44,099 bases of DNA. Origin: Escherichia phage TR1. This document shows, piece after piece, positions 322-20,186 of this stretch. The number at the start of each line of letters is the position of its first letter. Positions within the stretch are counted from its first letter, which is position 1. The stretch lies in the sequence record OP087522.1; one strand, given 5' to 3'. The notes beneath the pieces were generated by a model, which made no database searches, was not told the DNA's origin, and worked only from the letters and a program-made list of their open reading frames with translations. Made by a program: the position numbers and the translations under genes.

Positions 322-397
322 TGGTGTTCCGCGCTGGACTCGAACCAGCAACTAAGACTTAGGAGGTCTTTGCGTTATCCTGTTACGCCAGCAGAAC
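322..397 (-). tRNA. tRNA-Arg (anticodon CCU, reads AGG)
   Basis: Hand-folded cloverleaf on minus strand: acceptor GTTCTGC/GCGGAAC (one G-U), U8, D-stem GCGT/ACGC with GG in loop, anticodon stem AAGAC/GTCTT, loop CU-CCU-AA, T-arm GCTGG-TTCGAGT-CCAGC, discriminator A, encoded CCA. Confidence 0.6.
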
Positions 398-3470: not shown

Positions 3471-3639
3471 TTATAGTGTATATCCAGTGTATATGTCGCG
3501 TAAAAACCGTAGGTTAGTGGTCACTTACTTTTATGACCACACTGAGTATACATTAGTTACACGTATACAGGAAATGGTCCAGCCAGAATCAAAATCAACT
3601 TGTATGGTAGTCCATCCACCATTCATTCACCATCACATC

Positions 3640-4025: not shown

Positions 4026-4216
4026 TGAAAGTTAAGTGCTTAAATAATCTTAATGATGGAACCTGGGAATTTAGAAACGGAAAGCATTACATTTATGATG
4101 AAATGTATGGTTACGTAGTTGGTGACAACTTCAAACCAGTTTACTGCTACATTGATGATGAACGTGTCATTGCAGCAATTAAAAATAGGCTTATTTTTGA
4201 AACAGTAGAAGGTTAG
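4022..4216 (+). CDS. hypothetical small protein (start at ATGATG overlapping upstream stop)
   Basis: ORF track 3998..4216; start adjusted to 4022 for coupling. Confidence 0.4.
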   Translation: MMKVKCLNNLNDGTWEFRNGKHYIYDEMYGYVVGDNFKPVYCYIDDERVIAAIKNRLIFETVEG

Positions 4217-4217
4217 C

Positions 4218-4421
4218 ATGAAGCTACTTTGCACCAATATCATTAAAGACTTTAACGACGCGTTCAATAAGGGCTCTGAATACAACGCTACCGATTTCAA
4301 AGATGACATGTGCCTTGTTACCGGAGAGCGTCCACATAAGCATCACGACAAGTTTCAGGCTCTTAAATGCCTTGATTACGTCGTCATCCCAGGCATCGCA
4401 ACTTTTAAGGTGATTGAATAA
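4218..4421 (+). CDS. hypothetical small protein (67 aa)
   Basis: ORF track; tightly packed after previous gene. Confidence 0.45.
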   Translation: MKLLCTNIIKDFNDAFNKGSEYNATDFKDDMCLVTGERPHKHHDKFQALKCLDYVVIPGIATFKVIE

Positions 4422-4582
4422 TGCTATTACCATCTGAGATTAACTATTTTGATCTGGAAGTTATTAGTTCTTACAGCGGCAAGGGCTGGCCTTGCGGGGA
4501 ATGGTTCAACGAGGACTTGCTTGAATCTCACGAGATTATGCTTAAGGCGATTGAGAAGGCGAGAAATAGCACGAATTGCTAA
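4421..4582 (+). CDS. hypothetical small protein (about 53 aa)
   Basis: Manual translation (MLLPSEINYFDLEVISSYSGKGWPCGEWFNEDLLESHEIMLKAIEKARNSTNC); stop TAA lies in promoter palindrome. Confidence 0.3.
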   Translation: MLLPSEINYFDLEVISSYSGKGWPCGEWFNEDLLESHEIMLKAIEKARNSTNC

Positions 4583-4609
4583 AGCCCTTCGGGGCTTTTG
4601 TTGTATAGT
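4567..4609 (+). promoter_or_regulatory. promoter cassette copy with embedded hairpin: palindrome TAGCA-CGAAT-TGCTA (4567-4581), spacer containing GCCCTTCGGGGC hairpin, -10 TATAGT (4604-4609), leader CATCGAAACGAAA
   Basis: 22-bp spacing measured; hairpin plus T-run in the spacer may double as a terminator for the upstream gene. Confidence 0.5.
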
Positions 4610-4641
4610 TTCCTCATCGAAACGAAAGAGAACAAGTAATC

Positions 4642-4806
4642 ATGTTTGACAACTTTTACGACGCGATGGAAGAGGCAGTTTTCAGGGCCTCGCTTGATGG
4701 AAAGATTTACGGTTTAGTTCAGAAAGTTGATAAGATTGTTGTGCGTATCGTGCGCAAATCAGTACCAAACAAATTCATGTGGACTACAAAAGAGAGGGCT
4801 GAATAA
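4642..4806 (+). CDS. hypothetical small protein (about 54 aa)
   Basis: Manual translation (MFDNFYDAMEEAVFRASLDGKIYGLVQKVDKIVVRIVRKSVPNKFMWTTKERAE). Confidence 0.3.
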   Translation: MFDNFYDAMEEAVFRASLDGKIYGLVQKVDKIVVRIVRKSVPNKFMWTTKERAE

Positions 4807-5159
4807 TGACTACTACCATAACTAAAAATTTCATTAGCAAAGACAACCAACTGTTTAAAGCTCGCGTTAAAGATGGTGTCGAGCAAATCAAGAAAGATGG
4901 CAAATGGGTTAATCTGGAAGAACGTGGTAAATACATTAAGACCAGAACGCTTTACGTGACACATGTTAACCACAAATCTGGCGTTAAGAAGGATTTCAAA
5001 GAAGGAAAGAGATACCAGGTGCTAATGCATAGCGGGATGGGTCAGTCTGCTGGTTACATTTACGACGAAGATGGTAATGCATGGCAGCTATATCGAAGCG
5101 AAGATGTTGGTTTCTACACTCTTTGCCAGACTTACCTATTTGAATCATCTTACAAATAG
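4806..5159 (+). CDS. hypothetical protein (117 aa)
   Basis: ORF track; ATGA overlap with upstream gene. Confidence 0.5.
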   Translation: MTTTITKNFISKDNQLFKARVKDGVEQIKKDGKWVNLEERGKYIKTRTLYVTHVNHKSGVKKDFKEGKRYQVLMHSGMGQSAGYIYDEDGNAWQLYRSEDVGFYTLCQTYLFESSYK

Positions 5160-5232
5160 CAGCACGAATTGATAATGCATTATAAGCGGCTGTTGATATA
5201 ATGGCCGCTCAGAAACAATACGGAGAGAAGTA

Positions 5233-6816
5233 ATGTTTGATTTCAACGAAGATAAACTATCTGTTGAACAAGTTATGGCGATTGCCGCGACCGACAACCT
5301 CCCACCGCTTCGCGTGGCCATTAATGCAAATGGCTATCGGCAGTCTCAATCATTCTGGAAAACACCTGTGGAGATTGACGCAGGTAATGACAAGTACCCT
5401 GTAATATCTCTAGGCAATGACATTGATGTTGTTGGTAAGCTCTCGGCAAATATTGCTCGCTCAGTTCAGTTCCCAGAGTCATCAGCATACATGCACTTTT
5501 TGGGTTGTGTGTCCGCTGCGATGCTAGGGCGCTTTACTGTTGAGTATCACGGAACCCAGCAGCCAACATCGCTTTACGTGGTAACTAGCCAGCCGCCATC
5601 TACTGGTAAGTCAGCCATTAACTCTCTGTCAATTGCGCCAATGATTGCTGAGACTGAGCGTTTGAACGAGGTGCGTAAACGTGACCGCAAAAAGATTATG
5701 GCTAAGCTGTCTGCGCTAGCAAAAGAAATGAAACAGGAGAAGTCACCATCTGAGATGGCTTCACTGTTTGAGGAGAAGGAAGATTTAGAGGAAAAGCTCG
5801 AGAAGCTGTGCGATATCGTATTCCCGGTCTCAGATACTACGCCAGAAGGTCTTGCACGAATCAACAACCGCCAGGGTAACTTTGCGGTCATCTCGGATGA
5901 GGCAACAAGCGTCAACTCATTATTGGGCATGACATACGGTGATGGTTCCAAGAAAACGAACAGCGAGCTTGTACTTAAAGCGTGGGATGCTGGTAACGTA
6001 TCTATTGCCCGCGCTAACGCAGAAAACAACATGAGTTTCGTGGCAATGGGGTGCATCTCTGTAATTGCTCAGGATGAAACAATCAATGCGATTATGAATG
6101 CTGGTGCGCGTGGTATTGGTGTTTCCGAGCGTTTCCTTCTGGTGCGTGAAAAGTCATTTCTTGGAGACCGCGTGTTTGTTGATGAGAATGGCGATTCAAC
6201 ATACGAGGCTATTGATGGTGGTCTTAAGGCAGGCTATTTCCGTCTCGTTCATGAAATTATGAATGAAGTTGAAGTGAAACTGACAGTAAGTGCGTCATCC
6301 ATGCGCTACCTTAACCGAGCTCGCCAGGAAATGGAACCGCATCTTGGTGATGGCGGTAAATATTCCCACACGATGTTACGTGGTGCTCTTGGTAAATTTG
6401 ATAAGCAAGCAATCCGTATTGCCTCAGTATTGCACGTTATTCGCAACTGGTTCGCACCGGCAGGGTCGAGTCCGCAGAAATCAAGAGAGATTGAGCTTGA
6501 AACAATGCAAGAAGCGGTTATGATTTTCCACGAGTTAAGCAAGACTTATTTGTCGTCCGCTAGTGCTGCTGGTCATGCTGGTGATAATGCTGAAATGAAT
6601 AAGCTGGTTGATATCCTGATTAAGCAAGGTAAGAATGGGAAGGGTGTTGTTGGCGTTCGCTCACTGTATGAAGCAGCACGCAAAGTTAAACCTTTTGAAG
6701 GACAGGCTGGCGTAATGACTCGCATCAAGGACCACTTGGTTCCTATGCTTGATGAGAAAAACTATACATGCCTGATTGGTGATAAGATTTACATTAATCC
6801 GCGATTGTTGGGGTGA
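5233..6816 (+). CDS. large early protein with P-loop-like motif (VTSQPPSTGKS); function unknown, possibly replication-associated NTPase
   Basis: ORF track 527 aa; GGAGAGAAG RBS; motif read from translation; family assignment not verifiable without a search. Confidence 0.6.
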   Translation: MFDFNEDKLSVEQVMAIAATDNLPPLRVAINANGYRQSQSFWKTPVEIDAGNDKYPVISLGNDIDVVGKLSANIARSVQFPESSAYMHFLGCVSAAMLGRFTVEYHGTQQPTSLYVVTSQPPSTGKSAINSLSIAPMIAETERLNEVRKRDRKKIMAKLSALAKEMKQEKSPSEMASLFEEKEDLEEKLEKLCDIVFPVSDTTPEGLARINNRQGNFAVISDEATSVNSLLGMTYGDGSKKTNSELVLKAWDAGNVSIARANAENNMSFVAMGCISVIAQDETINAIMNAGARGIGVSERFLLVREKSFLGDRVFVDENGDSTYEAIDGGLKAGYFRLVHEIMNEVEVKLTVSASSMRYLNRARQEMEPHLGDGGKYSHTMLRGALGKFDKQAIRIASVLHVIRNWFAPAGSSPQKSREIELETMQEAVMIFHELSKTYLSSASAAGHAGDNAEMNKLVDILIKQGKNGKGVVGVRSLYEAARKVKPFEGQAGVMTRIKDHLVPMLDEKNYTCLIGDKIYINPRLLG

Positions 6817-6819
6817 TAG

Positions 6820-7155
6820 ATGTTTCTACTCGACGTATACAAGTTCTGCGAAGGATACAAGAACTTCAACCGCCAGCACCTGGCAAGATTCATCTACAAG
6901 CACAAGGATTGTGCAAGGATGGCTAAGGCCGCTGGAGTTGATGAAAGGTATTTTGCATCTAGTTGCTCGAAGGAGTTTATGGCGAGAATGCTTACGGCTG
7001 GTTATCTTGATGGAGTTAATGGCGTGTACTGGTCAAAGGGTTCAGGCAAGAGGACATTCCAGTTTGAGTTTATGAGCCTTGAAGGTAAGTCTAGTGCTTA
7101 TGTTAATGAGATGATGAATATAGCAACCATGAGTGACGAAGAATTGTTTGCATAA
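6820..7155 (+). CDS. hypothetical protein (111 aa)
   Basis: ORF track; followed by bidirectional terminator. Confidence 0.5.
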   Translation: MFLLDVYKFCEGYKNFNRQHLARFIYKHKDCARMAKAAGVDERYFASSCSKEFMARMLTAGYLDGVNGVYWSKGSGKRTFQFEFMSLEGKSSAYVNEMMNIATMSDEELFA

Positions 7156-7186: not shown

Positions 7187-7553
7187 TCCTGAATATTACC
7201 AAAAGCAGAATGATGATGATGCACAACATAATTCCACTTCCAACCCACGGGATTGCAGAAGAATCATTGTTTGTGATTTCAATCTTCTCAGCTGTGATTG
7301 TTGACGCTTTGATTGAGTTATCAGAAGTCTTCTTACCGCTTGAGCTATCAAGAGTGTCAACATTAGAGTTCTTCAACTCAGCCTTTGCATTGGAACTTGA
7401 ATCAACCTTGTTTGTCAGACCTACGCCAACCTTATTGTTCTCCGCTCCAGCCTGGGCGCTAATCTCTGGCTTACTGCCAATCAATCCGGTCAGTGCTGAT
7501 GTTGCCGAACAACCAGAAAGCAGAATCACCGCAGCAATTAATACAACCTTCAT
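7167..7553 (-). CDS. unimolecular spanin (lipoprotein signal plus C-terminal TM anchor)
   Basis: N-terminal signal with lipobox LLSGC and C-terminal hydrophobic helix IMLCIIIILLLVIF in one 128-aa protein; sits last in the lysis cassette, as in T1-type phages. Confidence 0.65.
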   Translation of the reverse strand: MKVVLIAAVILLSGCSATSALTGLIGSKPEISAQAGAENNKVGVGLTNKVDSSSNAKAELKNSNVDTLDSSSGKKTSDNSIKASTITAEKIEITNNDSSAIPWVGSGIMLCIIIILLLVIFRKNKKAP

Positions 7554-8035
7554 TTACCAACCCCACTTAAGCATAATTTTATTTCCTCGTTGCGCCTGTT
7601 CACGAGCCCCTTGACGACAACCTTCTTACCATTCTTGGTTATCTTGTTCCACATCCCGAGAGCCTTGCAACCCTCCTCAATCTTACCTTGGTTAATAAAC
7701 CTTACTGCCGTGGACTTCCTCATTGCAGAGCCGCCAACGTTATAACTAAAACTGATTAATGCCGCTCTTGTTTCTGGAGAGATAGGGTATGTCACCGCAT
7801 CCTGAACATACTTCCCATGAATCTGAATGTGCTTCTCAAGCAGATTCCGGCACTCCCTGTTACTGTACCTCTTACCCCATACAACATCAGGGCCAGTAAT
7901 GCCAGCACAGACCGTAGGGATTCCTGCAATGTCCATGTAAGGCTTGTACTCAACGCCCTCTACAAGCTCAATAATCGGCGCTGCGATGTATATTGCCGCT
8001 GCCGTCGCTGCACTAATTACCAGCTTCTGCTTCAT
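7550..8035 (-). CDS. endolysin, T4-lysozyme-like muramidase with N-terminal SAR-type signal-anchor
   Basis: Weakly hydrophobic Ala/Gly-rich N-terminal segment (LVISAATAAAIYIAAPII) followed by E-x10-D-x5-T catalytic spacing (ELVEG...YMDIAGIPTVCAG). Confidence 0.65.
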   Translation of the reverse strand: MKQKLVISAATAAAIYIAAPIIELVEGVEYKPYMDIAGIPTVCAGITGPDVVWGKRYSNRECRNLLEKHIQIHGKYVQDAVTYPISPETRAALISFSYNVGGSAMRKSTAVRFINQGKIEEGCKALGMWNKITKNGKKVVVKGLVNRRNEEIKLCLSGVGK

Positions 8036-8250
8036 TACTTACTCCTAATATTGATAGCTTTTTTTAAATCTCCTGACTCCAGCGCCTTCCTGATTGCCTG
8101 GCTATCCTTAAACTTCCAGTAAGCTCCCCACAACCCGAAAACAACAAGAGCTATAAGGCTGATTATTGCGATTGTCATTTGACCAGTTGCGGCGCCAGTT
8201 ACAGCCGCCCCACCTGTTGATGCCGTAGCGGCGTTAATTACTTCCCTCAC
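8035..8250 (-). CDS. holin (likely pinholin); GTG start at 8250 with AGGTGA RBS; ORF track alternative start 8328
   Basis: Gly/Ala-rich TM segment plus second TM (TIAIISLIALVVFGLWGAYW), charged C-terminus; about 71 aa from the GTG start. Confidence 0.55.
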   Translation of the reverse strand: MREVINAATASTGGAAVTGAATGQMTIAIISLIALVVFGLWGAYWKFKDSQAIRKALESGDLKKAINIRSK

Positions 8251-8378
8251 GTGATCACCTTTAAATCCTAATTTGTCAATAGATAGTGTAAATATAATAC
8301 AGTAGGCAAGTGTGGATTGTAAGCACAAAAAAGGGGAGCCAAAAGGCCCCCCGCTTGCAAATCTATGTTTTTGATGTG

Positions 8379-8583: not shown

Positions 8584-8626
8584 ATTATACCTAATTGCTG
8601 TGGCGATTGTTTAGCGATTCGTGCTA
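8584..8626 (-). promoter_or_regulatory. promoter cassette copy: palindrome TAGCG-ATTCG-TGCTA (8612-8626), 22-bp spacer, -10 TATAAT (8584-8589)
   Basis: Measured spacing; palindrome overlaps stop of dNMP kinase gene. Confidence 0.55.
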
Positions 8627-9165
8627 TTTATTGCATCAATCACTTTTTCTGTAGTTATTTTAATATCACCTTCAATAACATCAATATCAATTTCCCTTGC
8701 GCAGAGGCCGCTAATGTATGACCTACTATCTCCTTCGAAAGTGTAACCAGGTCTATGAAGCCTAACCAATGTAACCTCAACACCACTTTCAATTAGTGGC
8801 TCAATTTCACTTGCAAATCCACCATCTGAACAGATGTGGCAACCATTGCCAAGAGACTGAGCTAGCCTTTTACCGAAAACTTCATCACCAAAAACTGGCT
8901 TCATCACTGATTCGCTAATCCAAATCATAAATTGACGAACAGTCATTCCACCAAGAAATTCATGTGGTGATTCTTTGTACTCTCGATCATCGTAATTCTT
9001 AATAAATCCATCAAACTCATCGCTTGATAGCATGCTCTTAGCCACATTAAACATAGGCGATTTGAAAGAAACCTTATCCTTGCAAATTCCAAGTTTAACA
9101 ATGATATCTGCAACTGTATCTTTTCCAGCACCTGGGGGTCCATTAAGGATGATTAACTTTTTCAT
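8611..9165 (-). CDS. deoxynucleoside monophosphate kinase (T4 gp1-like P-loop kinase)
   Basis: LIILNGPPGAGKDTVADII P-loop and VTLVRLHRPG block resemble T4 dNMP kinase as recalled from memory. Confidence 0.6.
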   Translation of the reverse strand: MKKLIILNGPPGAGKDTVADIIVKLGICKDKVSFKSPMFNVAKSMLSSDEFDGFIKNYDDREYKESPHEFLGGMTVRQFMIWISESVMKPVFGDEVFGKRLAQSLGNGCHICSDGGFASEIEPLIESGVEVTLVRLHRPGYTFEGDSRSYISGLCAREIDIDVIEGDIKITTEKVIDAINSTNR

Positions 9166-9214
9166 TTTATTTACTCAATTTTAATGGGGCCATTTAAAAC
9201 CCCATTGATTTTAT

Positions 9215-9763
9215 TTATTTAGAATTCAGATTTTCTACACCATGAGATTTAAGGCCGCTGTGAACATTATAACCATAATCACAAACCTGATAAGTGGTTA
9301 TCCCTAGAGACCTAAAGTGATTTATTACATTCGGGCTATCATCCCAGGCCGCCGTAATTCTTTCAATCCCAATTGAATTTAAGAATTCCTCTTTAATTAT
9401 CGTATCCTTCCTGTTGTCCGAAGCTGATCGCATTACCATTACGTTGTATTTGCATCCATTTTTAGTAAGCCAATCAAGTGACTCATCTAGAACATGATCA
9501 GACCTTCCTGTTAAAATGATTATGTATGCGCCGCTATCATAAAGCGAATTCATTACGCTTATCGTATCATTAAATGGAGAATCAAATCTGCTTAGTGAGT
9601 TAAATTCAATCCACGACTCGGTAAGGTGAGGGTCAGTTTTTGGGATCTTATCAAGTCTGTGAGCCCCGTCAGAAAGCGTTCCGTCATAATCAAAAATATA
9701 AACTGGCTTACCTTTGAAGTCATTGTTAATTGATTTTTTTATCATTGAATATAGTTGTTTCAT
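9215..9763 (-). CDS. HAD-superfamily phosphatase (putative nucleotidase)
   Basis: HAD motif I FDYDGTLSD, motif II TGR, C-terminal WDD acidic motif. Confidence 0.6.
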   Translation of the reverse strand: MKQLYSMIKKSINNDFKGKPVYIFDYDGTLSDGAHRLDKIPKTDPHLTESWIEFNSLSRFDSPFNDTISVMNSLYDSGAYIIILTGRSDHVLDESLDWLTKNGCKYNVMVMRSASDNRKDTIIKEEFLNSIGIERITAAWDDSPNVINHFRSLGITTYQVCDYGYNVHSGLKSHGVENLNSK

Positions 9764-9793
9764 TTTTGTTTACCATCTCGTTTGTGTTTGATT

Positions 9794-9836
9794 AATATAC
9801 CCAGATTTCTCTGGGATTTATTAACAAAAAGTGCTA
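9794..9836 (-). promoter_or_regulatory. promoter cassette copy: palindrome TAACA-AAAAG-TGCTA (9822-9836), 22-bp spacer with hairpin, -10 TATATT (9794-9799)
   Basis: Measured in sequence. Confidence 0.5.
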
Positions 9837-9840
9837 TTTA

Positions 9841-10980
9841 TTACATTCCAGGTCGATAGATATGACGACCAACCTCGCCAAACTCTTTGTGATAAACAAT
9901 CGCGGCAGCCTGACGATATGAGCGCCACCCCCCTCGTGCTGCATACGCATCCTTGCTTGCTAGTGCTGGATGTACTTCGTCAATACCAAGAGTGCACTCT
10001 GTTACTGTTGCGTGGTGAAAATGCCCGGAATGGCAATAAACGAACTCGCATTCACCAAAGTCTTTCCTGTAATCAGTTGCCATAGCTGCAAGTCTACCTT
10101 CCGCTTTCTTCATTGTGTGACCATGAGTGTAGCCAAGTAGTGTTGAGCCAAATCTTGTCTTGTGCATAATCGCAGGGCTTACATCAACAAAGACACGACT
10201 CTCATTTTCATAAAATGCAGCCATCGCAGCCCGAAGCCAGATCATGCCGCTTTGGTCATGATTTCCCTCGATAATTTGAATGTCAACACTTTTATGCTTT
10301 TTAAGCATCTTTTCTACAGCGCCACGAATTGATCTAATTGCGATGTAGACTAACTTAGCGTAACGGCTATCTTGGTCAAGGCAGTGGCCACTAGCTGGAG
10401 TTACCGCCTCAAGGCCATCTGAGTGGAGATAATCACCACCAACAAGGATGACTGCCTTTTCTGAAGCTGGCGAAACTGATATTGCATGGTCAAAGTATGA
10501 GCCCATTAGTTTTTCTGCCGTTGCCGTGTCATAATTTTCACCAGACTCGTGGCGATGGGCCATCATTCCAATATGTATGTCGAAAATTGGATACAGTGTC
10601 ATTAGGTCAGGGTTTGTATCTTTGCCTGAATGCTTAACTTCCTCACACTTTGGCAACTCAGAACAGAAAGCCTCTCGCGCTTGCTCGAGCATAATTTCAA
10701 GGCGTTCATTATCAACGCTCGTCTTAACCCAGCGCAGCTTCTCATTCCCATCCGCATCAATCATGGTTGAAGTACCCTTGACTAAATAGCCGTCCGGCAC
10801 TAACTTCTTGATACCATCATTGCCATGCCCAAACAAACCACTCTTAGCTAACTTACTGCGACGAAGTTCAACGTTGCGAATGTTCATGTCGTACTTCTCC
10901 GCAATCGCCTTGTTAGTCATGCCGTTTTTAAGTTCTTCGATTAGCTGATCGTTGGTAATCTTTGCTACTGTCATTTTCAA
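9841..10980 (-). CDS. calcineurin-like metallophosphoesterase with N-terminal HTH domain
   Basis: N-terminal about 60 aa helix-turn-helix-like (NKAIAEKYDMNIRNVELRRSKLAKSG) fused to GDYLH / GNHD / GHFH phosphoesterase motifs. Confidence 0.6.
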   Translation of the reverse strand: MKMTVAKITNDQLIEELKNGMTNKAIAEKYDMNIRNVELRRSKLAKSGLFGHGNDGIKKLVPDGYLVKGTSTMIDADGNEKLRWVKTSVDNERLEIMLEQAREAFCSELPKCEEVKHSGKDTNPDLMTLYPIFDIHIGMMAHRHESGENYDTATAEKLMGSYFDHAISVSPASEKAVILVGGDYLHSDGLEAVTPASGHCLDQDSRYAKLVYIAIRSIRGAVEKMLKKHKSVDIQIIEGNHDQSGMIWLRAAMAAFYENESRVFVDVSPAIMHKTRFGSTLLGYTHGHTMKKAEGRLAAMATDYRKDFGECEFVYCHSGHFHHATVTECTLGIDEVHPALASKDAYAARGGWRSYRQAAAIVYHKEFGEVGRHIYRPGM

Positions 10981-11055
10981 ATCCTTAGTTCATCACGATA
11001 AAATATAAGATAGTAAAGCTAAACAGTGGTACTAATACTACTAGGGCGGCGTACT

Positions 11056-11307
11056 TCATACAACCTCCTTCAGCCAGTAATCAATTAAATTCGCACTAAT
11101 TGCTAATTTCTCGTCCAGGTCAGTCATGCAGAGATTGCCGCACGCTGGCGAGTAATAAATCTGAACCCACTTTCCATCCTTCGTCTTCGCATTAACATCC
11201 GCATAGTCAGGAGGAAACCAATCAGCAATAGGTATCGCCCTAAACTTAGCACCACTACTCCCACGCACCAAATCATAATGCTCAGGCTGAAAATCTAATC
11301 CAAACAT
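11056..11307 (-). CDS. hypothetical protein (83 aa)
   Basis: ORF track. Confidence 0.45.
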   Translation of the reverse strand: MFGLDFQPEHYDLVRGSSGAKFRAIPIADWFPPDYADVNAKTKDGKWVQIYYSPACGNLCMTDLDEKLAISANLIDYWLKEVV

Positions 11308-11309
11308 AA

Positions 11310-11552
11310 CTAACCCTTCGTTATCTTAAATTTGAATCCCTGCTCTTTCAGGAGCTCATTTGTGTCTATCGTTACGCCAGGCTTAACCCTGACATACTTG
11401 CGCGGCCTTTCATCCATGTACGTAAATTTACCGTTGAAAATAACGCTGATATCTTTTATATCAAAATACTTAGATATCATCTTAATGTCATCCTGAAGCC
11501 CAGCCTCTGCGCAGTGGGTCCATACCGCGGCCCTTCCTGTTTCAACTATCAT
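11310..11552 (-). CDS. hypothetical protein (80 aa)
   Basis: ORF track. Confidence 0.45.
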   Translation of the reverse strand: MIVETGRAAVWTHCAEAGLQDDIKMISKYFDIKDISVIFNGKFTYMDERPRKYVRVKPGVTIDTNELLKEQGFKFKITKG

Positions 11553-11674
11553 AAGCCGTATGCCATTTTCAGGTATTCACGAGCGCACATCCATGACCAT
11601 TGTGAATTATTCTTAACAGCGTCAATCGCATAAACCTGTGCAATCTCGAACATCTCTTTATCTAAGATTTTCAT
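11549..11674 (-). CDS. hypothetical small protein (about 41 aa)
   Basis: Manual translation; TAATG coupling with upstream gene. Confidence 0.25.
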   Translation of the reverse strand: MKILDKEMFEIAQVYAIDAVKNNSQWSWMCAREYLKMAYGL

Positions 11675-11895
11675 TATTTAAAATCCTCTGGGCAATCTTT
11701 CTTCATCTCTGCAATGTCTGCAACCATTCGGTCGCGCCACGTTTCGATATCAGTTCGCAAGTAATCTTCCTCAAAACTATAATCCAGGCAACGAGCCAAA
11801 TCCCAAACATCACCTTTATATCCAGCCTTGTGCAACTCCTGCGATGCCATTGCCTGAAATAACTCCCACTGCTTGTCAAAGGTTAAAATCGCCAT
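11674..11895 (-). CDS. hypothetical acidic protein (73 aa)
   Basis: ORF track; ATGA overlap with upstream gene. Confidence 0.45.
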   Translation of the reverse strand: MAILTFDKQWELFQAMASQELHKAGYKGDVWDLARCLDYSFEEDYLRTDIETWRDRMVADIAEMKKDCPEDFK

Positions 11896-12095
11896 TACTC
11901 AGATACCTCATCAAATTTCTCGCCAAACGCGTTTTTAACAGTTTCTAAATCGTCTTTGTAAGTTGGGCTGACTTCAAATGCGTAGTTGACATCTTCAACA
12001 TCAATAAGAATATAACCATCATCTGTGATAGCAAGTGAGTATTGGTAACCGGTCTTGCGTGATTCGTAGAATTTTCCAGTATAGATAGTAGCCAT
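11895..12095 (-). CDS. hypothetical acidic protein (66 aa)
   Basis: ORF track; promoter cassette and leader CATCGAAACGAAA upstream. Confidence 0.5.
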   Translation of the reverse strand: MATIYTGKFYESRKTGYQYSLAITDDGYILIDVEDVNYAFEVSPTYKDDLETVKNAFGEKFDEVSE

Positions 12096-12133
12096 TTTCT
12101 TTCTCTCTTCGTGTGTTTCGTTTCGATGAAGTG

Positions 12134-12176
12134 ATAATACACCACTTCATCAATTCGTCTTTAGCAATTCGTGCTA
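12134..12176 (-). promoter_or_regulatory. promoter cassette copy: palindrome TAGCA-ATTCG-TGCTA (12162-12176), 22-bp spacer, -10 TATTAT (12134-12139) inside an inverted repeat
   Basis: Measured; palindrome overlaps stop of VRR-NUC gene. Confidence 0.55.
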
Positions 12177-12593
12177 TTTTCTAATCATCTCTGCGAATGC
12201 AGCAAGAAAACCATCTCTGCCGTAGGCAACTCCTGCGAAACCGCCTGATTCCCTTACGCTTTTTAGGAATGACTTTTGCTCATCACTTACTGGGCTAGCC
12301 TGTGTTTTCCCAGCCCTCTTTAGCTCTATTGCGCCAAATGGATAACTTCCTCGTAATGACTCAGGTATTAGAAATAGGCAGTCTGATACGCCTTTAAGAA
12401 GTCCTTTAGCCTGGTCTTTCCTTGCCTGACCAATGCTCTTCATTGATTCATTAACTGTGTGCCAGTAAACAACCTGCGGATAGTTATACTTAACCCAATC
12501 AGAGCAAAAGATTTGTTCGTCGTCTTCCTTCGGGCATGACTTCACCGGGCCGCCATAGAACTCGAGGTAGTCAGTTTTGTCTGTAACTTTCAT
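12174..12593 (-). CDS. VRR-NUC family nuclease
   Basis: Pattern ...DCLFLIPE...GAIELKRAGKTQ... consistent with PD-(D/E)xK VRR-NUC domain; adjacent to helicase. Confidence 0.5.
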   Translation of the reverse strand: MKVTDKTDYLEFYGGPVKSCPKEDDEQIFCSDWVKYNYPQVVYWHTVNESMKSIGQARKDQAKGLLKGVSDCLFLIPESLRGSYPFGAIELKRAGKTQASPVSDEQKSFLKSVRESGGFAGVAYGRDGFLAAFAEMIRK

Positions 12594-14584
12594 AACAATT
12601 CTCCAAAATTCTTAAAAGCGATTATATCTTTACCTTTGCCGTTTTTTCTATGTGTAACCTGCACTGGTGCGCGGAACTTATCTACGTTCGCCATAATCAT
12701 TCTCGCATTGCGAAGTCTGCCAATTCTTGTGGCTTCAGCGCGATTCTCTATATGAGCAAGGCAGAAGTTCTTCCATAGCACGCTGCAAACTCGATGGTCA
12801 GACTCGGGGTTGAAGAATTCCCATGCATTAAACCGATCTCCGTTATGAGCCATGATATTGTACTTAACAACAATTCCGGTTTGATTCTTACTTAAGCCAA
12901 CTTGAAAATCATAAACACGAAGGTAATCACCACGACGATACATCTTACCTGTAAGGTTAGCATTGGGGTCTTTAAGCATCTCTCCGCACTCTCGACAGAC
13001 CTTCGCTGCTATATCATTGCGAGTCCCGCACCCTTTTTTGATAATAGCCTTTGTCTGCAGGTCTGTAATATCTTCACAAACTGTAAAAGTAAAGAAGTGC
13101 TCACATCTCTTTCCGTCAATCTTATTTCCGCATCTACGAGCAAAAGGCGAATTCTCGTATGAGCAAATTGGGCACACTCGAACCTCTGAATCACCATTGC
13201 GTGATGACTTAAACTTCTCGGCCTGAATCTCTTCAATTATTGGATCAAAGTAAAGTTCAGCCATATCATCAAGTGCGCCAGCAAAGTCCAGGACTAAGTG
13301 GTCATCCTTTTTCATACCAATTTCAATATGTTTCTTCTTGAGAATTCGCATTCCACGACCAAGAAGCTGAATCATTAATGTCAGGCTTCCAATCTTGCGG
13401 AGTATGACACTTGTGTCCCACGGAGGCACCGAAACGCCTGTGGTTAAGCATCCAATCTGAAAAATAATCTTGTACTTTCCGGTCTGGCATTCATCTAGAA
13501 TTTCCCTTCTCTTCTTCTCACCAGTGGAATCAGTGATTATCGCGTAAGGATAACCATCGGGTAGAGCAGCAGCCGCTTCATCGCAGTGCATTTTACCAGC
13601 GCAAGTTACCAGTGCGGCGTTACGTGTTTCAAGTATTTTGATAACGAACCCCATTATCTTTTGTGTCATCGTCTGGTTTTCGTGAATCTTTGCAGCCATT
13701 GCATCCATTTCTTTTTTGCTGAAATCCTTAACGCCATCACTTCCATCAGGTGCAAACTCGCTAAGGTCATAACCCAAATCACCAACCTCACCGTAAACAG
13801 TTGGAACAACGAATCCCAAATCAACCAGGTAACTGGTCGGAACTTGCATTACCGTCTTGCGCCAGAAGCCACGAATATTTGGGTTACTAACTACAATGTG
13901 GTCGTTGTTACGATACGGGCTACCAGTCAAGCCGAATATACGGAGCTCGCGACCATACTTCTCTTTGCAGCGGCGCTTCATTTCAGTGATGATTAGTGTG
14001 TACTGCGCACGACCAGTTCCAAGCAATCCGGTATTCACTCCATCCTTGAAAACCATTTCGCCTTTCTTGGTGCTCATTTGCTCAAATGTCTCTTCGTTCT
14101 CTTCAGCTTCTACGATATCCATGTGGTCCACCATGTGTGCCTCATCTATTGCGATAACCGCAGGAACATAGTCACCAAGACCCTTAAACAATCCATTGGC
14201 AGCCGTTCCTTCACTAGCCACTATGGTTGGGTAATAAACTGATTTAACGTTAAGGCCAGCGCAATATACGCTATTACGAATGCCAAAGCTGCGAAGTTCT
14301 TCAGCGTTCTGACTGATAATTTCAGACTGGCGAGAAAGTACCATATAAGGAAGGCCAAGTTGCTCCATGCGTTTACCAATCATGGCAATAATGATTGTCT
14401 TGCCAGCCGATACAGACAGGTCTGCGATGAACGGAGCTTCGTACTTAGCAATATTCTTGCCGATTTGGTCGAATGTCACGCACTGGAATGGATACGGCGT
14501 AATATCTCCAAACTGATAGTCTCTCTGAATCTGCTTAATCTTTTCTTGGTCAAAGTTTGCCACTAAGCGTTCTACTGGAAGCAT
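12590..14584 (-). CDS. SF2 DNA helicase (DEAH box) with C-terminal Cys-rich zinc-finger region
   Basis: Walker A SAGKT, DEAH motif (IAIDEAHMV), C-terminal CPIC...CxxC clusters. Confidence 0.7.
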   Translation of the reverse strand: MLPVERLVANFDQEKIKQIQRDYQFGDITPYPFQCVTFDQIGKNIAKYEAPFIADLSVSAGKTIIIAMIGKRMEQLGLPYMVLSRQSEIISQNAEELRSFGIRNSVYCAGLNVKSVYYPTIVASEGTAANGLFKGLGDYVPAVIAIDEAHMVDHMDIVEAEENEETFEQMSTKKGEMVFKDGVNTGLLGTGRAQYTLIITEMKRRCKEKYGRELRIFGLTGSPYRNNDHIVVSNPNIRGFWRKTVMQVPTSYLVDLGFVVPTVYGEVGDLGYDLSEFAPDGSDGVKDFSKKEMDAMAAKIHENQTMTQKIMGFVIKILETRNAALVTCAGKMHCDEAAAALPDGYPYAIITDSTGEKKRREILDECQTGKYKIIFQIGCLTTGVSVPPWDTSVILRKIGSLTLMIQLLGRGMRILKKKHIEIGMKKDDHLVLDFAGALDDMAELYFDPIIEEIQAEKFKSSRNGDSEVRVCPICSYENSPFARRCGNKIDGKRCEHFFTFTVCEDITDLQTKAIIKKGCGTRNDIAAKVCRECGEMLKDPNANLTGKMYRRGDYLRVYDFQVGLSKNQTGIVVKYNIMAHNGDRFNAWEFFNPESDHRVCSVLWKNFCLAHIENRAEATRIGRLRNARMIMANVDKFRAPVQVTHRKNGKGKDIIAFKNFGELL

Positions 14585-14625
14585 TTTAAATATCCTGATA
14601 GTTCTTTAGTTCGTTGCATTGATGT

Positions 14626-14667
14626 ATAATAACAGCCATCGAACCCATTGTTTAACAAAAAGTGCTA
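14626..14667 (-). promoter_or_regulatory. promoter cassette copy: palindrome TAACA-AAAAG-TGCTA (14653-14667), 21-bp spacer, extended -10 TGTTATTAT
   Basis: Measured. Confidence 0.5.
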
Positions 14668-14680
14668 TTGAGGTAATGAG

Positions 14681-15154
14681 ATGTGTGAAATCGACAAGCG
14701 AACTATTAACGGCAATAACGGAACCGTGCGCACAAAAGACAAAAAGCAACGCAAACGACCATCAGGCTACTACGTATTGAAAGATGAGGTAAAGGCTGGG
14801 CTACGTGCTCGCCTGGAGATGGTTCTTGATTTCTACGGTACAAAGGCGAACATCGCAAAGCAGTTAAATGTGTCCAACCAAGCTGTATCGGAATGGTTTA
14901 ACCGCGGTATGATTTCGGCTCGAGGGGCTCAGCGAGCACATAATGCGTACAAGCGAAATAAGGAGGGATTTCGAGCTACATTCTGCCGACCAGACCTGCA
15001 ATTCGACGGAAACGGAAAACCGCTAACACTTCGATGCAAGAAGCGCCATATGCTTCGCGTAGTTACCGATGCAGAACTAGCAACAAAGCCACCCTGTCGA
15101 CCATGGCGCAAGAATAAGATTGCTAACGAGGCAGCACGAAAAGCTAAAGATTAA
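14681..15154 (+). CDS. HTH DNA-binding protein (Cro/YdaS-like helix-turn-helix), putative transcriptional regulator
   Basis: HTH signature ANIAKQLNVSNQAVSEWFNRGMIS; basic N-terminal region. Confidence 0.55.
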   Translation: MCEIDKRTINGNNGTVRTKDKKQRKRPSGYYVLKDEVKAGLRARLEMVLDFYGTKANIAKQLNVSNQAVSEWFNRGMISARGAQRAHNAYKRNKEGFRATFCRPDLQFDGNGKPLTLRCKKRHMLRVVTDAELATKPPCRPWRKNKIANEAARKAKD

Positions 15155-15206: not shown

Positions 15207-15686
15207 ATGAACTGGCATGATTATTTTTACTATGTAGATGGCAAATTGCATTGGAAGATTAGCACTGCAAGACGTGTTAAGGTTGGCGATGAGTGCAACT
15301 CACTATCTACATCTGGCTATTACAAAGTGTCTGTTAATGGCTTTAGGACTTATGTACATAGAGTTGTGTGGGAGATGTTTAATGGAGAGCTTCAAAATGG
15401 CGACTACATTGATCATATAAACCATAACAAATTAGATAACAGAATAGAAAACCTAAGAGTAACAACAAATCAAGGTAACTCAAGAAATTGCAAGCTTAGC
15501 GTTTTATCAACAAATGGTTATTGTGGAGTGGCAAAGCTAAATCACGGAAAATTTAAGGCTCACATCAAGGTTGACGGCAAGCATCTACACCTTGGGAACT
15601 TCGATACTCCAGAGCAGGCGTATAAAGTAAGAATTGAAGCAGAGAGAAAATACAACTTTCACGAAAATCACGGGTTAAGCAAATGA
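15207..15686 (+). CDS. HNH-AP2 homing endonuclease (paralog family copy 1)
   Basis: MNWxDxFxY N-terminus, HRVVWE...DHINHNKLDNRIENLR HNH core, AP2-like GV...G.F.T.E.A C-terminal domain. Confidence 0.75.
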   Translation: MNWHDYFYYVDGKLHWKISTARRVKVGDECNSLSTSGYYKVSVNGFRTYVHRVVWEMFNGELQNGDYIDHINHNKLDNRIENLRVTTNQGNSRNCKLSVLSTNGYCGVAKLNHGKFKAHIKVDGKHLHLGNFDTPEQAYKVRIEAERKYNFHENHGLSK

Positions 15687-16606
15687 ATTACGATAAGAAT
15701 GAAGTTATACCTAAGATGGCCGGATTGTGGAAATCATTTTATGCAAAGGAACTTGGTTGGAATGATAGACACCTAAGTAAGAAGCACGGACCATGCCCAT
15801 ACTGCTTTGGCACTGACAGATTCAGATTTACCGACGAAATAGGCAGTGAAAAAGGAAATGGCGCGGCAGTTTGTTCGAAATGCGGAAGTGACTCCGGTAT
15901 AGGATGGGTCATGAAGTGCACTGGATCGTCCTTCGCCGATTCAGTAAATTTGCTTGGTGACTGGCTGAACTTAACACCAATTGAGGTTATAGTTAAAGCA
16001 AACAAGCAAGCATCAAGAACCCAGCTCTACAAAATGGGCGCACAGATTGATCACGAAAGATGCCTGGAGATAATGGAAAGGACTGAGAGAGTAGAATCTA
16101 CTCCACTCAGCATATACGAGGGTATTTATAGCGAGTTTGGTTTTGATGCTGGCAGGACAAAATCAGGCGAACTAATACACGCAGTGCCGTGCTTTATGGC
16201 TTATAGTGACGGCATATCAGAAGAAATGTGCAATGTAATGTTTATCAATGAAGAAGGGGGTGTTAGTTATGCTGCAAAAGATTATACTCGCCAGTCTATT
16301 GCTGTTATTGGCACCTTTAAAGATGATGAGTACGCTTATCTGGTCGATAATTGGATTGATGGTGTTCGCGTTCATCTTGCTACTGGCAAACGCTGTGTGC
16401 TTGTTTGCCACTCTAGCTACAACATGGAGATGGTTGCTTATGCGCTTAGAAACTACAAGCTGAGAGTGGCATGCAAGCTTGATAGGGAATTGCTTTGCGT
16501 TGCGGATGACAGGAACGTTGACGTGGTAATACCAAATGATGAATACTCATTCAAGAGCGGTATCAGGAAGAAGATATATAAAGCGAGTGATTTATTGAAT
16601 AGTTAA
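15683..16606 (+). CDS. DNA primase (zinc-ribbon CPYC...CSKC plus TOPRIM-like region)
   Basis: N-terminal Cys4 zinc-binding motif GPCPYCFGTDRFRF...CSKCG typical of phage primases; ATGA coupling with upstream HNH. Confidence 0.5.
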   Translation: MNYDKNEVIPKMAGLWKSFYAKELGWNDRHLSKKHGPCPYCFGTDRFRFTDEIGSEKGNGAAVCSKCGSDSGIGWVMKCTGSSFADSVNLLGDWLNLTPIEVIVKANKQASRTQLYKMGAQIDHERCLEIMERTERVESTPLSIYEGIYSEFGFDAGRTKSGELIHAVPCFMAYSDGISEEMCNVMFINEEGGVSYAAKDYTRQSIAVIGTFKDDEYAYLVDNWIDGVRVHLATGKRCVLVCHSSYNMEMVAYALRNYKLRVACKLDRELLCVADDRNVDVVIPNDEYSFKSGIRKKIYKASDLLNS

Positions 16607-16628
16607 CCTCCTTCGGGAGGTTTTTTTA
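16607..16628 (+). terminator. rho-independent terminator after primase
   Basis: Hairpin CCTCCTTCGGGAGG plus T7 run. Confidence 0.65.
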
Positions 16629-16693
16629 TGCCTTAAAGATGCTACAATCCAAATTAGCAATTAGTGCTATTTTACAAATGGAGACTTTACACA

Positions 16694-19171
16694 ATGGCAA
16701 TTTATGACTTAGGAACAGCGTCTCTGGCCGCTAATGGCGAGGTGACTGGCGTAGGGACAACATGGAAGGCGCCCCTTACACTGATTAGAGTTGGTGCAAC
16801 CATCGTATTTAAAACTGAACCAGTACAAATTTACACCATCTCTGAAATTATCAGTGATACTCAGATTAATGTTTATAACCCCAATTCTGAGACCGTTCCT
16901 GCCGGAACTGGTTACGCGATTCTTGCTCACGATGGAATTACCGTTCAGGGTTTAGCTCAGGATGTTGCTGAAACTCTCCGTTACTATCAATCAAGGGAAT
17001 CAGAGGTCGCAACAGCAGTTGATGTTTTTAAGGCTTTTGATCAGGATAAATTTTCAAGTGATGTAAGCCGAGTTAACACACAATTTGGAGAAATTACTGC
17101 TATTGGTGCTCAGGTCTCATCTGATGCCGCCAAAGTGACCACCGATAAGAATGCAGCGGCAGCAAGTGCAACCAGCGCATCCGCTGACAAAGATGCGGCA
17201 GCTGCATCAGCGCGGGAGGCGGCAGATTATGCGGCGTCACTTGACACACAGAACATATTAAGAAAAGACTTGGCGCTATCAGACTTAACTGACAAGCCAC
17301 TAGCAAGGCAGAACCTTGATGTTTACTCCAGGGATGAGACTGACTCAAAAATAATTAATGATTTGTCCGAGAGAGGAGGTGAACTCATTAATTTGAAAAG
17401 GGGCGGTCTTACATCAAACTTATCGACTACGATTGCTGATTTTTACCAGAATACAGTTATTAACCTTGTTACAGATTACGGTCTTGTTGGTGACTTTGAT
17501 CCCACCACTGGCGTATCTAACGGAACAAATAACGTCACTGCACTTCAGGAAGCAATCAATGATGTTATTTCCAACGGAGGTAATGTGACATTAAGATTCC
17601 CGTCAGGGAAGTTTAGATTTAAGCGTCTAAACACATACAAGCCAGGTGGCGTAGCTGTTACTTTAGGTGTTGAGGGTGCAGGTTTAAAGAATGTAATTAT
17701 TGAGGGGGATGGATTCTCAACCGAACTCTATTGCGATGATATTGGAAGATTGTTCGGGCTTTATGCTGCGAACAACGTTATCATCCGAAATATGAAGGTG
17801 ATAGGTTACGGGGGCGGTGCTACTTCGCCATCTAGAGAAAGAGACCAGGCATTCGCGTTGGGTTATAAATGCAAGAGCGTCATTTTCGATAATGTTTACA
17901 TTGATAACTTCTACGGTGACTGCATCTATTTTGGTGGAGATCTTGAGAATGGCGCAATAACAGGAAAATTCTCTAGAGATGTAACAGTAAGGAATTGCAT
18001 ACTTAAGGAGCGTTACGGCAACGGCATTCGATCCTGGGACGCATCAGGTGGCGGCACACGATCCCGTTTGGCAATGGCTGTTATCGACGTCGTAGGCCTG
18101 AAAGTACATGACAATATTATTTACGGAGAAATAGATCTAGAACCAAACTCGTCAGGCCAGAATATGCAGTATGTGGAAATCCATGACAATACATTCCGCA
18201 GTGCTGGAGTTATCCCAGTAACCAACCCTTACGAGTGTGAGCCATTGTACGAAGGAACAGCCACGATAAGAGGCGGTGTAACACTGCAAACTGTTGCGTC
18301 AAACTTGACGACCGCATCAATCACAATTCGCGATAACGCAATTGAGTACGGGCGAATTCGAATTACTGGTGGTTCAAATGCAGGTCATGTGTTGTGTCAT
18401 GGCAATAGGATACGTCGTGGTGGGTTTTTTATTGGGCATTATTCTGGAACAAACAACAACCCTAACATGATCATTAGGGATAATCATGTTGATGCTGGGT
18501 TCAATGGTAGTGACGATTACAACATGGAAGACTGGATTACTGTCGGAAGCATCCCTTTAGCTGCATTCTTTATACAAGGCAGCCTTTCATCATGTCGCGT
18601 TATTGGTAATACATGTGGAAGCCAAGATGCTAGTTTTTCTAATATGTTTTATCTTCTTAACACCACGCAAACAGGTGGGGTAGATATTGAGGCGGGCGGC
18701 GGTAGTAACCAGTGGGTGGAAAACATTGCAGTTAACACCACTGCTCTTCGTAACTACACAACGCGAACTACAGACCTTGATATTGGGAACTCCGTAATGC
18801 CAAACTCTGGGGTTGGTCGAACTGAGTTTACTAAGCAGTTAGCGAGAGTATTAATTAATCCTGTCGTTAATGTGACCGTTTCGGGAAGTAACCAGAAGAT
18901 ACAATTTAATACAAATCCCGGTAATAAATATAGATTAACTCATAGTGCAAGCTCTAGTGTAGATGGAATAACTGGCTACACTGAGGAAGCCGGGATGCAA
19001 ATACAAATAAGGAGTTCATCAGCTTCTGCATCAAACACTTTGACATTAAAATCTAGTTCAAGTTTTTATATGAAAGGAGGAGTAGACGCGACCTTGAAAT
19101 CAACTAGACACATTATTATGGTTGAGTTAATAGAGCCAGAGGGGTGGACTGAGGTATATAGAAACTTTTAA
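16694..19171 (+). CDS. tail fibre / tailspike-like protein with right-handed beta-helix (pectate-lyase-like) central domain
   Basis: Ala-rich segment AAAASATSASADKDAAAASAREAADYAAS; repeated motifs NVIIRN, DNIIYG, HDNTF, IRDNAI, IRDNHV typical of parallel beta-helix; GGAGA RBS; start taken at ATG 16694, not the upstream GTG of the ORF track. Confidence 0.55.
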   Translation: MAIYDLGTASLAANGEVTGVGTTWKAPLTLIRVGATIVFKTEPVQIYTISEIISDTQINVYNPNSETVPAGTGYAILAHDGITVQGLAQDVAETLRYYQSRESEVATAVDVFKAFDQDKFSSDVSRVNTQFGEITAIGAQVSSDAAKVTTDKNAAAASATSASADKDAAAASAREAADYAASLDTQNILRKDLALSDLTDKPLARQNLDVYSRDETDSKIINDLSERGGELINLKRGGLTSNLSTTIADFYQNTVINLVTDYGLVGDFDPTTGVSNGTNNVTALQEAINDVISNGGNVTLRFPSGKFRFKRLNTYKPGGVAVTLGVEGAGLKNVIIEGDGFSTELYCDDIGRLFGLYAANNVIIRNMKVIGYGGGATSPSRERDQAFALGYKCKSVIFDNVYIDNFYGDCIYFGGDLENGAITGKFSRDVTVRNCILKERYGNGIRSWDASGGGTRSRLAMAVIDVVGLKVHDNIIYGEIDLEPNSSGQNMQYVEIHDNTFRSAGVIPVTNPYECEPLYEGTATIRGGVTLQTVASNLTTASITIRDNAIEYGRIRITGGSNAGHVLCHGNRIRRGGFFIGHYSGTNNNPNMIIRDNHVDAGFNGSDDYNMEDWITVGSIPLAAFFIQGSLSSCRVIGNTCGSQDASFSNMFYLLNTTQTGGVDIEAGGGSNQWVENIAVNTTALRNYTTRTTDLDIGNSVMPNSGVGRTEFTKQLARVLINPVVNVTVSGSNQKIQFNTNPGNKYRLTHSASSSVDGITGYTEEAGMQIQIRSSSASASNTLTLKSSSSFYMKGGVDATLKSTRHIIMVELIEPEGWTEVYRNF

Positions 19172-19175
19172 CAAT

Positions 19176-19204
19176 AAAAAAACCCCGCCTATGCGGGGTT
19201 TTTA
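19176..19204. terminator. bidirectional rho-independent terminator between convergent tail-fibre and SSB genes
   Basis: Hairpin CCCCGC-CTAT-GCGGGG flanked by A-run and T-run. Confidence 0.65.
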
Positions 19205-19207
19205 CTA

Positions 19208-20007: not shown

Positions 20008-20186
20008 ATAACCAAGATGATCCGGCTTTCCTACAACTAATCCGGCCTTAGCCTTTTTTACCGCGAATCTCCTGCAAAGGTTTCCATCTTAATCTATTTT
20101 GAATAACTTAGATAAGTATTCAAAGCTCAAATTCTTACCATTCATTCTTTTCTATCTGTTTTGTTGGGGCATAAGCCCCGTTTTAT

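Follow-up and report, generated by a model that had tools for sequence, protein, structure and literature searches.

Phage TR1 of Escherichia carries on the minus strand a short sequence with the outline of an arginine tRNA, and this locus raises the question of whether the gene is a working tRNA and, if so, what it does for the phage. We analyzed the whole sequence record OP087522.1, a stretch of 44,099 nucleotides which is referred to below as the window. A first-pass annotation, made from the letters alone, had proposed a tRNA-Arg(CCU) with an encoded CCA end that serves the rare AGG codon, and had offered two purposes for it: support of late-gene translation, or replacement of host tRNA lost by depletion or to anticodon nucleases. 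The features discussed below are collected in Table 1.

Table 1. Positions of the features discussed in the text (TR1 numbering unless another genome is named)
Feature	Position	Strand	Remarks
tRNA-Arg(CCU) gene	322-397	minus	76 nt including encoded CCA (324-322); anticodon loop CUCCUAA
Promoter-like element (inferred)	594-622	minus	-35 TTGCAT (622-617), 17-nt spacer, -10 TATTAT (599-594)
Predicted transcription start	near 586	minus	From the promoter-like element
Leader (5' UTR), non-coding	398-586	minus	189 nt; conserved and structured; upstream of the tRNA
Leader hairpins	573-561, 556-544, 465-451, 450-433, 422-409	minus	From alignments; loop of 450-433 is AGGCGTAA
Small ORF, 60 aa	123-305	minus	Shine-Dalgarno AAAGGAG at 319-313
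Intrinsic-terminator-like hairpin	47-69	minus	GCCCTC-TTCTT-GAGGGC + TTTTTT; just before terS
terS	44099-43575		After the terminator-like hairpin, across the record ends as in TR2
Late packaging/structural operon	24200-44099	minus	
Major capsid protein	37407-38351	minus	AGR 0/9 Arg codons
Scaffold/decoration protein	38494-38988	minus	AGR 0/7 Arg codons
Protease	39000-40112	minus	AGR 1/13 Arg codons
Major tail protein	34762-35421	minus	AGR 1/9 Arg codons
Tape-measure gene	30790-33609		Diverged from both TR2 and IME542
HNH_3 homing-endonuclease ORF	43000-43506	minus	
HNH_3 homing-endonuclease ORF	30248-30718	minus	
HNH_3 homing-endonuclease ORF	20894-21385	minus	
HNH_3 homing-endonuclease ORF	15207-15686	plus	
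PNKP-type phosphatase	9215-9763	minus	
P-loop ORF	8611-9165	minus	Adjoins the phosphatase; weak match (AAA_18)
TR2-like blocks	123-2000, 4040-7155, 8611-15154, 38494-44099		About 99-100% identical to TR2
IME542-like blocks	7550-8328, 15207-30718		About 99-100% identical to IME542, a UCU-tRNA phage
Slot tRNA of IME542 (NC_048208)	17666-17740		tRNA-Arg(UCU); unannotated in RefSeq
Slot tRNA of Rtp (NC_007603)	4893-4969		tRNA-Arg(UCU); unannotated in RefSeq
Slot tRNA of one more relative	3487-3561		

Identity and integrity of the tRNA gene

ARAGORN returned a single tRNA for the whole window, an arginine tRNA with anticodon cct, exactly where the first-pass annotation had placed it. The Rfam match and the predicted fold agreed, and the strand, length, anticodon and encoded CCA given there proved exact as well. 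Rfam family RF00005 matched positions 325-397 of the minus strand (59.3 bits, E = 1.9e-10; gathering score 29). The match spans model positions 1-71 of 71 and contains no pair flagged as non-canonical, and the CCA lies directly 3' of the discriminator. Both the minimum-energy and the centroid structures calculated with ViennaRNA are the canonical cloverleaf (-24.4 kcal/mol), with stems of 7, 4, 5 and 5 bp, an anticodon loop of 7 nt and a variable loop of 4 nt. The anticodon C34 C35 U36 is followed by A37 and A38, and the D loop, AACAGGAUA, contains G18, G19 and A20. The z-score of single-sequence folding was just -1.94. This is weak thermodynamic evidence, and the case for the TR1 tRNA is therefore carried by the covariance-model score and by covariation.

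For the covariation analysis, 13 tRNAs from the same genomic slot in the Drexlerviridae were aligned and the pairs of the cloverleaf were counted. Pairing was retained in 99.6% of the stem cells, and double (compensatory) changes were seen at 11 of the 21 pairs; none of 500 shuffles was as good, and slid controls gave 0-2. The nucleotides U8, A14, G18, G19, A20, U33, C35, U36, A37, T54, T55, C56 and A58 were invariant in all 13 tRNAs, and the G53:C61 pair was likewise present and invariant. It is known that A20 and C35 are the main identity elements by which E. coli ArgRS recognizes tRNA-Arg. Both are unchanging in the 13 slot tRNAs and are found also in E. coli argW and argU. Judged by this alignment, the slot tRNA family is under structural selection as a tRNA, and positions 322-397 of TR1 are a real, intact and apparently functional tRNA-Arg(CCU).

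A second or degenerate tRNA was not detected by ARAGORN in the 170-nt gap upstream of the gene, and a permissive Rfam scan of positions 1-1300 gave, besides the tRNA, chance-level matches only.

The same slot in related phages

TR1 is a T1-like siphophage of the Drexlerviridae, and its genome is colinear from base 1 with that of TR2 (Braunvirinae, Christensenvirus). All 76 nt of the tRNA are identical in TR2, TR3, CY1 and Rao1, which are Braunvirinae of the Christensenvirus type and in which both the coordinates and the flanking genes are those of TR1. TR2 nevertheless contains large genome blocks unlike TR1, in places where TR1 resembles phage IME542. Some 30 further phage records, among them those of Rogue1, JK06, the AHP24 group, phiEB49, Sf12 and Sd1, contain a tRNA 93-97% identical to that of TR1, and in the Phleasolo group the identity is 82%. 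The Rogunavirinae (Rogue1, JK06, AHP24, phiEB49, Sf12, Sd1) have the anticodon of TR1, in the same slot, which likewise precedes a small ORF and terS. They differ from TR1 by a few compensatory substitutions in the stems (A-U versus G-C at 27:43, and G-C versus A-U at 49:65) and by diverged leader sequences. With an identity of at least 93% and the order promoter/leader, tRNA, small ORF and terS, the TR1 gene belongs to this Drexlerviridae slot.

The first-pass annotation implied that the gene was new, and in this respect it has to be corrected. TR2 and TR3 already carry calls for the gene, as tRNA-Arg-CCT at the TR1 coordinates in the former and as tRNA-Arg in the latter, and an arginyl-tRNA "recognizing the rare codon AGG" was described for Rogue1 in 2012 (PMC3496638). 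A tRNA-Arg(CCU) for AGG in T1-like coliphages is therefore a catalogued feature that is already known. Four more phages have been listed with "1 arginyl-tRNA" (PMC4070988), and the publications on the Rogunavirinae gene date from 2012-2014. Scans of IMG/VR for new relatives returned, apart from one uncultivated genome, only contigs that appear to be known isolates.

Annotation of the slot is uneven. The UCU tRNAs of IME542 and Rtp are not called in RefSeq (Table 1), annotation of the CCU tRNA is absent from CY1, Rao1, JK06 and others, and in IMM-001 (MF630922) a "hypothetical protein" has been called over the tRNA at 4427-4502. Correct annotation would be worthwhile, since some deposited relatives have no call for the tRNA or have a protein over it. 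In phiEB49 the tRNA-Arg is followed, at a distance of 1 nt, by a further tRNA called as Val(AAC) (678-754 of the compared sequence), and in Phleasolo by an odd 93-nt tRNA-like call (691-783 of the compared sequence); TR1 has neither. In the BUCT-XGG-1 copy (601-677 of the compared sequence) the D loop is one T longer and the acceptor stem is interrupted by a U5-U68 mismatch, and these oddities are either decay or a sequencing error.

Depending on the phage, the slot in Drexlerviridae contains a CCU tRNA, a UCU tRNA or none. A UCU tRNA was found in Rtp, IME542, ACG-M12, CEB_EC3a and IME253. These phages share with TR1 the genomic slot, the promoter and the leader, and the T arm and acceptor stem of their tRNA are nearly identical to those of TR1. 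They differ from TR1 in that their tRNA reads AGA, and AGG to a lesser extent, has a variable loop of 5 nt and resides in AGA-biased genomes. The near-identity of the T arm and acceptor stem indicates that the CCU and UCU slot tRNAs are one phage tRNA lineage; a U5-G68 wobble is common to both types. The D arm and the anticodon arm of the Rtp-type UCU tRNA, about 37 nt, agree with host argU at all but 1 nt. Such a match suggests a modular exchange or chimera, possibly by gene conversion with argU.

The host tRNA-Arg(CCU) is E. coli argW. The phage and host tRNAs share the anticodon, the loop CUCCUAA, the 4-nt variable loop, the GGAUA motif of the D loop with A20, A73 and the encoded CCA, but each stem differs. 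A blastn search of the TR1 tRNA against 5,426 E. coli genomes (E <= 1e-5) gave zero matches. Since no E. coli genome matched and all stems are unlike argW, the TR1 tRNA is not a recent capture from the host, and derivation as a copy (paralogue) of argW was rejected on these grounds. The anticodon-arm/T-arm pattern of the TR1 tRNA was absent from all 185,579 bacterial species genomes. A looser T-arm/acceptor pattern had a sole match, in a 21-kb contig from human gut binned as an "Odoribacter" MAG (CAKVCR010000010.1). The cluster of nine tRNAs on this contig (1629-7655) points to phage DNA, probably from an unrelated phage that was placed in the wrong bin. Beyond the T arm and acceptor, its tRNA-Arg(CCU) has nothing in common with the Drexlerviridae lineage, and the contig had no megablast match in the phage collection.

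Drexlerviridae (T1-like) phages are virulent. The possibility that the tRNA is derived from an attP or integration site was considered and rejected, as the TR1 tRNA is full length and no integrase is annotated in the near-identical TR2 and IME542 genomes.

Proposed transcription unit and structured leader

The tRNA is preceded by a promoter-like element and a long non-coding leader and followed by a small ORF, a terminator-like hairpin and terS (Table 1). A scan of TR1 positions 1-1300 for consensus promoters found nothing; the promoter-like element was missed because its -35 hexamer matches at only 3 of 6 positions. Its position and spacing are nevertheless conserved in three subfamilies and in T1, the equivalent position being occupied by TTGACT-17-TAGTAT in the Rogunavirinae, TTGACA-17-TATATT in BUCT-XGG-1 and TTGACC in T1. 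Host RNA polymerase would thus transcribe the TR1 tRNA, probably from this conserved sigma-70-type promoter about 190 nt upstream, into an RNA comprising the structured leader, the tRNA and the small ORF. The ORF is probably co-transcribed with the tRNA, since its Shine-Dalgarno sequence starts 3 nt after the CCA. Excision of the tRNA would be carried out by host RNase P and 3' trimming enzymes, with the CCA encoded as in E. coli tRNA genes.

The small ORF is 99% identical to TR2 CDS 123-305 and gave no Pfam match. A homologous small ORF follows the slot in IME542. In T1, the ORF downstream of the slot has no homology to the 60-aa ORF of TR1, the leader alone being shared, and a terminator is annotated at the equivalent place before terS.

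The leader has its own conserved structure. RNAalifold analysis of the leader alignment gave 36 pairs, of which 11 had changed on both sides. In the pair count 98.7% of cells were paired and 11 of 34 pairs showed double changes, a result that 500 shuffles failed to equal, and slid controls did not exceed 1. Overall, 5-7 hairpins with compensatory changes can be drawn. The TR1 leader has no Rfam match, and its 5' half recurs, conserved and without annotation, in 88 phage records. Phage T1, which has no tRNA, retains the promoter block and the final leader hairpin, CCGC-AGACCCGTAA-GCGG, which runs straight into the ORF; nowhere else in the T1 genome was the motif of this hairpin matched. The presence of the leader in T1 without the tRNA indicates that in TR1 the tRNA sits inside an older structured 5' UTR.

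Downstream, the late operon contains 28 terminator-like sites against 17.4 +/- 3.6 expected, and promoter-like sites are not enriched. About ten of the terminators are strong intergenic intrinsic-terminator hairpins, for example those at 41413, 38469, 37400, 34756, 33597, 29892, 27768 and 24300. With a late operon so rich in terminators, a cis-acting regulatory role of the leader is conceivable. We regard as doubtful, yet worth recording, the fuller proposal that the tRNA was a later insertion into an older leader, one that starts at the sigma-70-type promoter right before the packaging and structural operon and acts as a cis-acting regulatory RNA, possibly an antiterminator of the HK022 put type. 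If true, the leader would let RNA polymerase read through the approximately ten late-operon terminators, and the RNase P cut at the tRNA would define the 3' end of the leader. The structured leader is the sole element of this locus with the potential to lead beyond what is already known.

Two other ideas about the leader were considered and abandoned. A leader peptide or attenuator sensing tRNA-Arg could be imagined from a 13-codon leader ORF (MASWPKRIRRKPQ) with two AGG codons. Its ATG is absent in CEB_EC3a and another relative, its frame is not conserved in IME542, Rtp and a further relative, and this stretch of the leader serves as the 3' strand of a helix that covaries. Pairing of the last leader hairpin with the T arm appeared in a single-sequence fold of leader plus tRNA, and it needs a stem identity that is peculiar to TR1 and not conserved in relatives.

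Codon usage and the probable role of the tRNA

Codons were counted in genes called alike in every genome as greedy non-overlapping ORFs, so that the calls are approximate, and a 50-kb core region of E. coli MG1655 served as the host reference (Table 2).

Table 2. AGG and AGA usage in phages grouped by slot tRNA, and in the host reference
Genomes	AGG per 1000 codons	AGA per 1000 codons	AGR share of Arg codons	AGG/AGR
TR1 (CCU tRNA)	10.4	14.0	0.46	0.43
TR2, Rogue1, Sf12 (CCU tRNA)	12.3-14.3	7.6-9.4	0.39-0.47	0.60-0.63
IME542, Rtp, ACG-M12 (UCU tRNA)	8.4-10.1	11.4-14.0	0.39-0.46	0.39-0.42
T1, TLS (no tRNA)	5.0-5.2	6.9-8.1	0.25	0.38-0.43
E. coli MG1655 core region	1.14	2.29	0.06	0.33

The first-pass annotation had called AGG one of the rarest codons of enterobacteria, and in the host reference it is indeed very rare, at 2% of arginine codons against 19.7% in TR1. 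It had also suggested a comparison of codon counts, in which AGG turned out to be about 9-fold commoner in TR1 ORFs than in the host; the contrast in AGG and AGA persists in genes of at least 200 aa. Given the predictor match, the right isotype and the enrichment of AGG, the first-pass reading of this gene as a tRNA for AGG stands.

In T1 and TLS the AGR share of arginine codons lies below the 37-40% expected from base composition, whereas AGR usage is almost doubled in the tRNA-bearing Drexlerviridae compared. The balance between the two codons also shifts with the type of tRNA: the pooled AGG:AGA ratio was 557:350 in CCU-tRNA phages versus 369:527 in UCU-tRNA phages (z of about 8.6, a significance that is overstated since codons were treated as independent, and the comparison is between related phages with kinship ignored). 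In six more CCU phages, for which partial loci were used, AGG/AGR was 0.46-0.72. Thus, both the AGG:AGA balance and the AGR load track the slot tRNA, as codon compensation predicts.

TR1 itself has an AGG/AGR value typical of UCU phages despite its CCU tRNA, because its genome is a mosaic of TR2-like and IME542-like blocks (Table 1). About half of the genome is IME542-like at 99-100% identity. When the codons of TR1 are divided by ancestry, AGA:AGG is 57:57 in the TR2-like genes and 119:75 in the IME542-like genes, and 188 AGA codons lie outside the reading of the CCU tRNA. The CCU tRNA is imperfectly matched to codon demand in this recombinant. With a CCU tRNA and about half of its genes AGA-rich, TR1 would offer a convenient test case for the speed of codon re-adaptation after a tRNA swap.

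Based on these data we consider that the TR1 gene is best explained, and with good probability, as a functional phage tRNA-Arg(CCU) acting in classical codon compensation, a reading already in print for the Rogue1 homologue (PMC3496638). Host ArgRS would be expected to charge the tRNA, as the identity nucleotides A20 and C35 are present, and the charged tRNA would decode AGG only. In E. coli this codon depends on the argW tRNA, which is very scarce, with a weak contribution from argU, so an additional phage tRNA would raise the capacity for AGG decoding during infection, with a probable benefit to fitness. The phage CCU tRNA might also indirectly free the host UCU tRNA for AGA.

Which genes would profit is seen from the distribution of the codons. 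There are 17 AGG codons in the tape-measure gene, 11 in that of the terminase large subunit and 6 each in those of the portal and the tail-tip protein, and AGG is also concentrated in tail-fibre and lysis genes, in small early genes and in the HNH endonucleases. The proposal that the tRNA supports late-gene translation therefore holds only in part: it suits the AGG-containing late genes just named, but not the most abundant late proteins, which have 0-1 AGG codons. As the highest-expressed late genes are nearly without AGR (Table 1), translational selection against these codons persists despite the phage tRNA. The most extreme AGR usage in TR1 is that of the four HNH_3 ORFs, in which AGR makes up from 8/9 to 16/16 of the arginine codons. 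The benefit of compensation in TR1 would thus fall on moderately expressed genes and on the selfish HNH genes. T1 and TLS thrive without a tRNA, which means that the slot tRNA is dispensable for Drexlerviridae.

This dispensability leads to the question of whether the tRNA is a nearly neutral passenger, brought in by module exchange and of little consequence in the TR1 recombinant. It arrived with the TR2-like block, while about half of the TR1 genes have the AGA-rich signature of the UCU lineage; T1 and TLS are without any tRNA, and the irregular BUCT-XGG-1 copy may be a case of decay. However, the structure of the tRNA is strongly conserved over three subfamilies with compensatory substitutions, the slot is filled in every Braunvirinae and Rogunavirinae genome examined, and AGR usage rises with the presence of a tRNA in the way described above. 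Covariation, together with a slot that is almost always occupied, makes a neutral passenger unlikely, and we leave this explanation only a small place.

Another explanation, in line with the second purpose proposed by the first-pass annotation, is that the phage tRNA substitutes for host tRNA-Arg(CCU) cleaved or depleted by an anticodon nuclease of the host or of a prophage. Phage tRNAs are known to neutralize tRNA-targeting defences, according to three reports (PMC10264068, PMC11555353, PMC11464382), and the models would be the tRNA-Lys of T5 acting against PARIS and a phage tRNA-Tyr acting against retron Eco7. In TR1, the PNKP-type phosphatase and the adjoining P-loop ORF (Table 1) could form an RNA end-healing module, and the relatives Rtp and TLS have annotations of a T4 Stp-like "activator of PrrC" and of pnk. 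The presence of end-healing ORFs and of Stp-like peptides in relatives indicates that Drexlerviridae probably meet tRNA-cleaving defences. All four stems of the TR1 tRNA, moreover, differ from those of argW.

The anticodon loop, however, is identical to that of argW, so that there is no escape mutation in the loop of the type proposed in PMC10264068. A literature search found no defence nuclease specific for tRNA-Arg(CCU), an absence that is not proof. PARIS has been reported to target Lys, Thr and Asn tRNAs and HepS to target Thr, Ile and Ser tRNAs, while colicin D is said to prefer tRNA-Arg(CGN). Furthermore, a switch of anticodon between CCU and UCU that follows AGG:AGA usage is predicted by compensation and not by evasion of a nuclease. 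An anti-nuclease role of the TR1 tRNA is for these reasons pure speculation, and we consider it very improbable.

One possible reading of the paired phosphatase and P-loop ORFs is a split polynucleotide kinase-phosphatase; an RNA ligase was not noticed in TR1.

It is equally improbable that the tRNA is kept mainly as a processing or regulatory element, an RNase P/RNase E signal within a structured 5' UTR whose cleavage separates the leader RNA from the downstream mRNA (the small ORF and, possibly by read-through, terS and the late genes), with decoding secondary: the tRNA does have the last leader hairpin on one side and the Shine-Dalgarno sequence of the next ORF on the other, and the leader is older than the tRNA, independent of it as in T1 (where promoter, leader and hairpin are followed directly by the ORF) and covaries on its own, but T1 manages without a tRNA at this slot, the anticodon type covaries with codon usage, and the anticodon, the ArgRS identity nucleotides and the tertiary nucleotides are invariant in 13 diverged homologues, which a mere signal would not need. 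Because of this invariance a pure processing role seems unlikely on comparative grounds.

Overall, the data favour codon compensation. A single slot that contains CCU, UCU or nothing, with the codon balance following, is a compact natural experiment in its favour. The comparative codon result is of modest value, and it comes at a time when anti-defence roles of phage tRNAs are being emphasized.

Decoders of AGR codons are known in other coliphages, namely the tRNA-Arg(UCU) of T4-like phages and the tRNA-Arg of Stx-converting lambdoid phages, and they follow the same logic, the decoding of AGA and AGG which are rare in the host. A search with the Rtp-type UCU tRNA as a query matched 1,717 phage records, and Tequatrovirus and Stx2a-converting phages are among them. 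Compared with the TR1 gene, the tRNAs of T4-like and Stx phages belong to other lineages and stand in other contexts, in tRNA clusters or beside stx, and their anticodon is mostly UCU and not CCU.
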